A DNA stretch of 4,312 nucleotides from Escherichia coli (GTDB lineage: Bacteria; Pseudomonadota; Gammaproteobacteria; Enterobacterales; Enterobacteriaceae): the NCBI RefSeq assembly GCF_003334305.1, contig NZ_QOWS01000050.1. One strand, given 5' to 3'. The position numbers and the translations under genes are program-made. The notes under the pieces are model-generated. The model was not told the DNA's origin, made no database searches, and worked only from the letters and a program-made list of their open reading frames with translations. Of this stretch, positions 1 to 684 are shown piece by piece (position 1 is the stretch's first letter; each line of letters begins with the position of its first letter).

Positions 1-248
<248 letters not shown>

Positions 249-326
249 TCACCACATCAACCAGGCAACATGCCCGACTTGTTGAATGCAATAAACAGAA
301 GGAAAAAACAGGGAGGAGAAAAGAAG

Positions 327-402
327 TGGTGCTGATAGGCAGATTCGAACTGCCGACCTCACCCTTACCAAGGGTGCGCTCTACCAACTGAGCTATATCA
401 GC
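327..402 (-). tRNA. thrT: tRNA-Thr (anticodon GGU), 76 nt with encoded CCA
   Basis: Reverse complement gives GCTGATATAGCTCAGTTGGTAGAGCGCACCCTTGGTAAGGGTGAGGTCGGCAGTTCGAATCTGCCTATCAGCACCA: cloverleaf-compatible, anticodon loop CTTGGTAA, T-loop GTTCGAATC, 3' CCA. Confidence 0.95.
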
Positions 403-408
403 ACATCT

Positions 409-483
<75 letters not shown>

Positions 484-599
484 ATCCTGGAACTCGGCTA
501 CCTGATTTTCATTCTGCACTGAATATCGAGAGAAGCTCTCTTTATTCGAGCCGGTAAGCGAACTTATCGTCTCGGGCTACGCCATCGCGTGGCCGAAAT

Positions 600-684
<85 letters not shown>

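Follow-up and report, generated by a model that had tools for sequence, protein, structure and literature searches.

The 116-nucleotide (nt) spacer between tyrU and glyT in the thrU-tyrU-glyT-thrT-tufB operon of Escherichia coli appears, on balance, to be a structured internal transcribed spacer that could serve as a folding and processing scaffold for the operon's precursor transcript, and not a gene. We analyzed this spacer in a 4,312-nt stretch of E. coli DNA (hereafter, the window), in which the operon, that of E. coli K-12, lies on the minus strand. In the proposed arrangement, a U-rich linker would be followed by three independent, Enterobacterales-specific hairpins (spacer nt 6-79), their number varying between families, and the last ~35 nt of the spacer, including the near-invariant 12-mer GGUAGCCGAGUU, would supply the 5' strand of a long-range helix with interruptions. 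This strand would pair with the pyrimidine-rich RNA directly 3' of thrT, such that the closely spaced glyT and thrT are enclosed by the helix. Judging from comparisons across the Gammaproteobacteria, a helix of this kind quite likely exists, and it presumably forms in vivo. The locus and the elements of the helix map to the window as follows.

295 to 318, minus strand: predicted 3' strand of the helix, CUCCUCCCUGUUUUUUCCUUCUGU, nt 9-32 of the thrT trailer, at the start of the thrT-tufB intergenic region
327 to 483, minus strand: glyT and thrT, a tRNA pair separated by 6 nt, inside the predicted helix (ARAGORN, Rfam and the 395-nt fold)
484 to 599, minus strand: the 116-nt tyrU-glyT internal transcribed spacer, bounded by tRNA-Tyr and tRNA-Gly
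491 to 502, minus strand: the near-invariant 12-mer GGUAGCCGAGUU, spacer nt 98-109
493 to 517, minus strand: predicted 5' strand of the helix, GCAGAAUGAAAAUCAGGUAGCCGAG, spacer nt 83-107 (minimum free energy and centroid structures; partner-permutation tests)
600 to 684, minus strand: tyrU, the 3' end of which sets the start of the spacer (ARAGORN and Rfam)

ARAGORN and Rfam place four tRNA genes on the minus strand, namely, thrT (327-402), glyT (409-483), tyrU (600-684), and thrU (693-768). Given these boundaries, the spacers of the cluster are 6 nt (403-408), 116 nt (484-599), and 8 nt (685-692) long, which bears out an earlier note on this DNA that singled out the tyrU-glyT spacer for its length. 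The length as such has been textbook knowledge since the locus was sequenced in 1980, and the observation is not new in itself. The note also took the spacer for a transcribed, non-coding segment internal to the tRNA-tufB operon, and rightly so: the same-strand tRNA genes tyrU and glyT flank it within one transcription unit, and coding capacity, a promoter of its own, and a terminator of its own are all missing. The tyrU-spacer-glyT segment (409-684) is at least 99% identical in 5419 of 5443 E. coli records, and the RefSeq annotation of the tRNA-Tyr to tRNA-Gly interval of the E. coli tufB operon contains no features. In MG1655 (U00096.3), the spacer is located at 4,175,557-4,175,672 and the trailer at 4,175,830-4,175,870.

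In an unconstrained fold of the native 395-nt transcript of E. coli, which extends from the spacer to where tufB starts, 493-517 pairs with 295-318 in both the minimum free energy (MFE) and the centroid structures; both tRNAs keep their acceptor, anticodon, and T arms, and the z-score of the whole segment is -3.6. Complementary flanks enclosing stable RNAs, a feature of rRNA-type processing stems, are present in this prediction. Complementarity between the last ~40 nt of the spacer and the ~45 nt that directly follow thrT is seen in E. coli and in all major lineages examined, which keep it with unrelated sequences. Leader-trailer duplexes from 94 distinct genomes have a median z-score of -2.2 against dinucleotide shuffles of the trailer, and 59% of them score below -2. 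The 33-nt spacer of Plesiomonas consists of the helix strand alone.

Because folds of sequence alignments failed or recovered the helix only in part, we used partner-permutation tests that require no alignment. For 12 gammaproteobacterial lineages with mutually unalignable leaders and trailers, the duplex energies of the native partners sum to -249.6 kcal/mol, compared to -158 ± 12.7 for permuted partners, and none of the 200,000 permutations reaches the native sum. Of the 12 leaders, 8 pair best with their native trailer, which is the second best partner for three more. All trailers are pyrimidine-rich, so the permutation test controls for composition. When the test is confined to 18 Enterobacterales genera, the native sum is equaled or bettered by 36 of 200,000 permutations, a figure that is inflated by relatedness. 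Thus, the complementary leader and trailer co-evolve across lineages and do so only weakly within the Enterobacterales. Compensatory differences can be seen by eye, with Vibrio GGAAAUA:UAUUUCC and Photobacterium GAUUGAA:UUCAAUC at the same position, and for Pseudoalteromonas, Alteromonadaceae, and Rheinheimera the helix is recovered in part by the per-group alignment folds. In one E. coli-like metagenome contig (L211), the trailer is broken right after CCCTGTTTTTT by the unrelated sequence GACACCCCGACCCGTCAC..., which may be a mobile-element insertion within the 3' strand of the helix.

The leader portion of the spacer is conserved at the sequence level as well. Among 32 distinct spacers from 22 Enterobacterales genera, with the genomes chosen without reference to GGUAGCCGAGUU, every position of this 12-mer is 94-100% conserved, compared to 30-75% in the flanks. 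The 12-mer is also found in Orbales, and the other gammaproteobacterial lineages have different leaders, each conserved within its own lineage. GGUAGCCGAGUU would bear a bulged CC in the helix, and the conserved ACAGAAAGAAC contains three A-R-N triplets. A local hairpin inside the invariant leader (CUGGG...UUCAG) was considered and rejected, the two sequence types being, by inspection, inconsistent with it.

The upstream portion of the spacer, the U-rich linker and the three hairpins, is made up as follows.

595 to 599, minus strand: AUUUC, a single-stranded U-rich linker (spacer nt 1-5), directly 3' of the CCA of tyrU
575 to 594, minus strand: hairpin 1, GGCCACGC-GAUG-GCGUAGCC (spacer nt 6-25), -10.3 kcal/mol
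548 to 573, minus strand: hairpin 2, GAGACGAUAAG-UUCG-CUUACCGGCUC (spacer nt 27-52), -5.0 kcal/mol
521 to 547, minus strand: hairpin 3, GAAUA-AA-GAGAG-CUU-CUCUC-GA-UAUUC (spacer nt 53-79), -8.3 kcal/mol, including the short hairpin at 528-540

We aligned 47 distinct Enterobacteriaceae-type spacers of 109-120 nt, with spacers from a metagenome scan added to the set. RNAalifold predicts three hairpins in this alignment, and compensatory double changes are present in 13 of the 18 predicted pairs. Standard pairs occupy 95.9% of the cells, compared to 34-45% after a shift of the 3' partners by 1-3 columns, and none of 500 column shuffles matches the observed value on any of five measures. The hairpins contribute to this signal individually: hairpin 1 (alignment columns 7-13/20-26) is paired in 97.2% of the cells with double changes in 4 of 6 pairs, hairpin 2 (columns 28-35/50-57) in 95.5% with double changes in 6 of 8, and hairpin 3 (columns 71-74/81-84) in 94.7% with double changes in 3 of 4. 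Hairpin 2 is weak in E. coli, with two mismatches. Hairpin 3 is present in both the MFE and the centroid structures of E. coli and is missing from Superficieibacter and from one further spacer (L229). The number of hairpins changes between groups, from none in Plesiomonas to two in Superficieibacter, three in Enterobacteriaceae, and five or six in Erwiniaceae, and in all Enterobacterales spacers a U-rich linker of 3-7 nt precedes hairpin 1.

The earlier note had recognized only one short hairpin in the spacer, GAGAG-AAG-CTCTC, and had placed it correctly at 528-540. This description has to be amended, given that three covarying hairpins occupy nt 6-79 and the rest of the spacer is predicted to pair over a long range with the thrT trailer. 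The suggestion in the same note that the spacer could hold a structured element holds up, with compensatory changes in all three hairpins. The note had proposed covariance analysis across Enterobacteriaceae, with a lack of conserved structure and sequence as the mark of a simple linker; run here, this analysis finds both to be conserved, so the spacer fails that description.

In the MFE structure of E. coli, the 5' strand of hairpin 2, GAGACGAUAAGUU (561-573), pairs instead with GAUUUAUCCGUGUC (228-241), also on the minus strand and located just upstream of the tufB Shine-Dalgarno sequence. This pairing may be due to chance because the hairpin-2 sequences of other Enterobacteriaceae do not look complementary to this segment, which is conserved.

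The strand on which these structures are selected can be told from the wobble pairs. Across 18 helix positions in the 47 aligned sequences, there are 81 G.U cells, which pair on the transcribed strand only, compared to 11 A.C cells, which pair on the other strand only; thus, it is the transcribed strand that is under selection. The E. coli spacer folded alone is anomalous in this respect: the transcribed strand is no more stable than its shuffles (z = -0.64), in contrast to the opposite (plus) strand (z = -3.44), because two A.C mismatches become G.U pairs on the opposite strand.

Removal of the spacer by RNase E, RNase P, and exonucleases is expected from what is established on E. coli tRNA maturation. 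What the helix could add is a means of keeping the flanks of both tRNAs together, which would stop the purine-rich leader and the C/U-rich trailer from disturbing the folding of the tRNAs and would set the sites at which endonucleases cut the transcript into thrU-tyrU, the dimeric precursor of glyT and thrT, and the mRNA of tufB. The cuts might be made by RNase III on the duplex and/or by RNase E in the single-stranded linkers, with RNase P and 3' exonucleases finishing the tRNAs, and the three hairpins would keep the extra spacer RNA compact. RNase E, as an alternative or a complement to RNase III, might act on the U-rich and A/U-rich linkers, namely, AUUUC directly 3' of tyrU, GAAUAAAG separating hairpin 2 from hairpin 3, and AUAUUCAGU past hairpin 3, of which AUUUC is a candidate entry site given the preference of this enzyme for A/U-rich single strands just 3' of CCA. 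The hairpins with their covariation, the strand under selection, the conserved sequence, and the co-evolving complementarity are shown by the data, whereas the roles of the nucleases and the purpose of the structure are inferred. A Gly-Thr dimeric precursor reportedly accumulates in RNase P mutants, as Chang and Carbon are said to have found in 1975; such a precursor implies endonucleolytic cuts on both sides of the exact unit that the predicted helix encloses.

A more specific version, which we put forward as a tentative possibility, casts the helix as a processing stalk, in which one double-strand-specific cut by RNase III would at once free the glyT-thrT dimer and make the 5' end of the tufB mRNA, and a nuclease or an RNA-binding protein would specifically recognize GGUAGCCGAGUU and its bulged CC. 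If this is the case, the maturation of two tRNAs would be coupled to the fate of the EF-Tu message, and the helix would represent an uncatalogued, Gammaproteobacteria-wide tRNA-operon counterpart of the rRNA processing stems. As a hint from the literature for a role of RNase III, tufB has been called 'a known site' of this enzyme, with a 30-fold excess of reads in an rnc mutant by RNA sequencing (PMC5371410).

The closest parallel is with the leader-spacer helices of 16S and 23S rRNA that are processed by RNase III in rRNA operons. In both cases, complementary flanks enclose mature RNAs within one transcript, the pairing is kept across lineages while the sequence changes, and both sides would be releasable in a single step. 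Unlike the rRNA stems, the predicted helix of the tufB operon encloses two tRNAs, is shorter and, in E. coli, far more interrupted; its 3' strand doubles as the 5' end of the tufB mRNA leader, and RNase III cleavage is here a prediction only. The metY-rimP-nusA-infB operon, where, in the account given by PMC5371410, RNase III cuts 3' of the tRNA and separates it from the mRNA (Regnier & Grunberg-Manago 1989), is likewise a mixed tRNA-mRNA translation operon with a double-stranded element beside a tRNA, and the tufB helix is proposed as a comparable separation point. The metY substrate, however, is a local hairpin 3' of the tRNA, whereas the tufB-operon duplex is long-range and spans the tRNAs.

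Several observations weigh against the helix or against its role in processing. In E. coli, the helix is heavily interrupted, with 20 pairs over 25 leader nt and a longest perfect run of 6 bp, so that it is no obvious substrate for RNase III; the helices of Catenovulum, Zobellella, and Pseudoalteromonas are much more regular. The E. coli leader pairs at least equally well with 11.9% of the 45-nt windows of the same locus, and across lineages this test of energy against the locus background yields modest values, between 0.2% and 16% (p 0.002-0.16). RNAalifold finds no pairs in a plain MAFFT alignment of the Enterobacterales leader and trailer. An anchored, ungapped count in the same order gives 79.5% pairing, compared to 43-59% when the strands are slid and 77.5 ± 0.9% when the partners are swapped; with the swapped value this close to the native one, complementarity within the order is conserved with little covariation. 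The alignment folds for Vibrionaceae and Pasteurellaceae lack the helix (in the Vibrionaceae MAFFT alignment, the variable-length trailers are visibly misplaced), and Gilliamella shows no leader-trailer signal. The conservation of GGUAGCCGAGUU exceeds what pairing to a variable partner would require, so something else must constrain the 12-mer. The tufB site of RNase III named in PMC5371410 comes without coordinates and could be at another place, such as the tufB-secE interval, and the literature yielded no retrievable cleavage-site, structure-probing, or mutant data for the coordinates of the helix.

Among the alternatives, it seems unlikely that the spacer is a plain processing linker, with the hairpins being neutral leftovers of palindrome or RtT-type insertions next to tyrU and the complementarity a mere effect of composition. 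The free variation in the number of hairpins between groups, from none to five or six, would fit such a linker, as would the insertion of RtT copies in several families (below), which indicates that the site tolerates insertions, the unexceptional energy of the E. coli duplex compared to other windows of the locus, and the lack of a stable product in the Term-seq data. Neutral leftovers, however, do not account for the compensatory changes in all three hairpins and the G.U/A.C asymmetry that reveals selection at the RNA level, nor for a 12-mer that is invariant over the whole order, and a composition effect is at odds with the permutation among real trailers of similar composition, which still picks the native partner.

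A role in transcription is improbable too. Under this hypothesis, the helix together with the UUUUUU tract would be an attenuator ahead of tufB, or else the helix would shield the C-rich, G-poor trailer from Rho, in either case setting the ratio of tRNA to tufB mRNA. In E. coli, Vibrio, and Zobellella, a U tract does follow or overlap the 3' strand and faces an A tract in the leader, and the thrT trailer is strongly biased to C over G, with CCUG preceding UUUUUU in E. coli. However, Pseudoalteromonas, Aeromonas, and Glaciecola lack such a tract behind the helix, which rules out termination as the conserved function; a stem with a U tract conserved among orthologues, as expected of an intrinsic terminator or attenuator, is not observed. 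Furthermore, the scan of the minus strand for consensus terminators is empty, and the palindrome GGUGAUAUCACC followed by GAUUUAU, closer to tufB, could equally well be the published terminator.

Still less probable is a spacer-derived regulatory RNA, that is, a fragment containing the A-R-N-rich stretch and the 12-mer that would bind Hfq and pair with small RNAs (sRNAs) or mRNAs, in the manner of the 3'ETS-leuZ sponge. The three A-R-N triplets in ACAGAAAGAAC are compatible with Hfq binding, and a site that pairs in trans would be expected to be invariant and to look single-stranded, as the motif does. There is also one Hfq chimera from CLASH (cross-linking and ligation, with the hybrids then sequenced), in which a fragment of the pre-glyT leader, AAUGAAAAUCAGGUAGCCGAGUUCCAGGAU-GCGGGC..., is joined to the 3' untranslated region (3'UTR) of cutC (PMC7213987 supplement). 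This evidence, however, amounts to a single read with the predicted duplex in glyT rather than in the spacer, and the A-R-N stretch is already explained by pairing with the trailer. A terminator-type 3' end is lacking, in the Term-seq table thrU and glyT have 3' ends and the spacer has none, and the interactome literature that we searched does not mention the spacer. The stable spacer-derived fragment envisaged in the earlier note therefore finds no support in the Term-seq data, and the only trace of it on Hfq that we found is the single chimera. As an observation in its own right, the chimera (4175642-4175695 in MG1655, corresponding to ~461-514 of the window, minus strand) retains 31 nt of the leader, so that an unprocessed glyT leader does exist on Hfq. 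The partner, the cutC 3'UTR, is presumably the MicL region.

Sponges derived from tRNA spacers were reportedly described by Lalaouna et al. in 2015, with 3'ETS-leuZ and the internal spacers of metZ-metW-metV as the examples. The tufB-operon spacer resembles the 3'ETS-leuZ-type sponges in being a transcribed spacer of a tRNA operon with sequence constraint beyond the needs of excision. In contrast to these sponges, its constraint is largely explained by intramolecular structure, and it is not known to have an sRNA partner, to yield a stable fragment, or to end in an Hfq-dependent terminator.

Finally, a function on the plus strand of the window, whether as an antisense RNA or terminator or as a site acting at the DNA level, is suggested by the z-score of -3.44 against -0.64 and by the only terminator-like match, at 528-540 on that strand, and has a negligible probability, considering that the G.U and A.C counts favor the transcribed strand, that the E. 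coli asymmetry is traced to the two A.C mismatches, that a single terminator-like match is at the shuffle level (0.8 expected), and that there is no gene upstream on the plus strand to terminate; the antisense RNA, which the plus-strand z-score had prompted us to consider, is rejected on the same counts.

The structured spacer favored here would matter because of what the operon encodes. The products of the tufB operon include the essential glyT tRNA, the probably essential thrU tRNA, and about one third of the most abundant protein of the cell. The division of the precursor into its tRNAs and its mRNA has been described only in old, piecemeal work, and a helix enclosing glyT and thrT would offer a testable model for the Gly-Thr dimeric precursor that bears also on the origin of the tufB mRNA 5' end and on the leader motif of 12 nt that is frozen across the order. 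The case further shows that spacers of tRNA operons can hold selected structure that catalogues of RNA families do not list. Should the helix be irrelevant in vivo, the 116-nt spacer would be an ordinary, albeit structured, linker, with no hidden gene. The spacer itself is known, and the conserved architecture appears to be undescribed: as far as the literature is searchable, we found neither the hairpins nor the motif nor the helix described, and two papers from 1987 on termination and processing upstream of tufB may cover part of it.

Searches for coding and regulatory signals are in line with a spacer devoid of genes. There are no open reading frames (ORFs) of at least 20 amino acids confined to the spacer; the only ones are two of 2 and 4 codons, ATG-GCG-TAG and ATG-AAA-ATC-AGG-TAG, both found on the minus strand where the earlier note had reported them, and a coding function was rejected given that longer ORFs merely traverse the tRNA genes. 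No promoter-like sites were detected within 484-599, and the minus strand contains no match to the terminator consensus. An internal promoter or terminator was likewise rejected, the sole match being a plus-strand site that is equal to hairpin 3 and is at the level of chance. Searches of Rfam with the spacer and the trailer detect no family (E ≤ 1 for the window; E ≤ 10 for 205-620). A match to YrlA (Y RNA-like) below the threshold, at 355-463 on the minus strand (31.3 bits vs a gathering cutoff of 69), spans the glyT-thrT junction and is most likely an artefact of tRNA-likeness.

We surveyed the length of the spacer in one genome per species, using an exact 26-mer from the 5' end of glyT, a criterion that is independent of the spacer; this requirement yielded 120 loci and leaves Pseudomonadales and Betaproteobacteria outside the sample. 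The surveyed Gammaproteobacteria all have the order Thr(UGU)-Tyr-Gly(UCC)-Thr(GGU)-tufB, and with few exceptions the Tyr-Gly gap exceeds the other gaps of the cluster. This gap measures 25-72 nt in Vibrionaceae, Pasteurellaceae, Aeromonadaceae, and most Alteromonadales, and 87-483 nt in all sampled genera of Enterobacterales except for Plesiomonas (33 nt). The long spacer is therefore a trait of this order and not a quirk of E. coli. In Aeromonas, a second copy of tRNA-Gly(UCC) is located 3' of tRNA-Gly(CCC), with spacers of 10-105 nt, apart from the Tyr-Gly-Thr-tufB cluster (survey loci L019, L028, L034, L041, L044, L045, L056, L085, and L090).

In several relatives of E. coli, the orthologous spacer contains RtT RNA (RF00391), which is usually described from the tyrT locus as a tyrT-associated repeat with a pseudo 3' end of tRNA-Tyr. 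With a covariance-model score of at least 45 bits as the membership criterion, RtT is present in the tyrU-glyT spacers of Yersinia, Serratia, Dickeya, Mixta, and Acerihabitans (50.6-125.8 bits), in tandem in the latter, at the following positions of the survey loci.

L053, 1406-1532; L101, 611-738 and 781-908; L100, 4037-4161; L104, 4010-4134; L102, 4787-4902; L105, 4123-4237: RtT copies in relatives of E. coli

Each copy ends in a pseudo 3' end of tRNA-Tyr, and these stretches match the E. coli feature annotated as 'RtT sRNA'. The RtT insertions lie 5' of a core made up of hairpin and leader, similar in layout to that of E. coli (also in L195). The E. coli spacer does not belong to this family: there is no RtT match in the window (E ≤ 1) or in 205-620 (E ≤ 10), and the comparison with the E. 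coli tyrT-RtT region gives a Smith-Waterman score of 18, compared to 17.3 ± 2.5 for shuffles, that is, no similarity. Accordingly, a degenerate RtT or tyrT repeat was rejected as the origin of the spacer. RtT is located in the orthologous spacer in other genera, and at both tyr loci a hairpin lies right 3' of the CCA; unlike these cases, the E. coli spacer has neither a match nor similarity to RtT, which elsewhere is an insertion 5' of the core. In the E. coli tyrT locus, the first tRNA-Tyr is followed by AAUUC and the hairpin CCACAGCGAUGUGG (L242, 1144-1175), an arrangement of the same form as the tyrU linker with hairpin 1 and of a different sequence.

The tufB-proximal part of the trailer contains a further conserved element. 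Some 30-40 nt upstream of the tufB start lies GGUGAUAUCACC (242-253, minus strand), a perfect palindrome with GAUUUAU after it that is conserved in Enterobacterales trailers. The mutations that up-regulate EF-Tu in an evolution experiment with an ancient EF-Tu, a 19-bp duplication and a single-nucleotide polymorphism at -29, fall in the GGUGAUAUCACC region. These adaptive thrT/tufB mutations were considered and discarded, being located in this tufB-proximal region, outside the helix. Four metagenome contigs (L136, L143, L176, and L201) carry, in place of the tufB leader, ...TTTGCCTGGCGRC within ~35 nt after thrT, a sequence that resembles the start of a 5S rRNA gene and may reflect a different genomic context or an assembly chimera.

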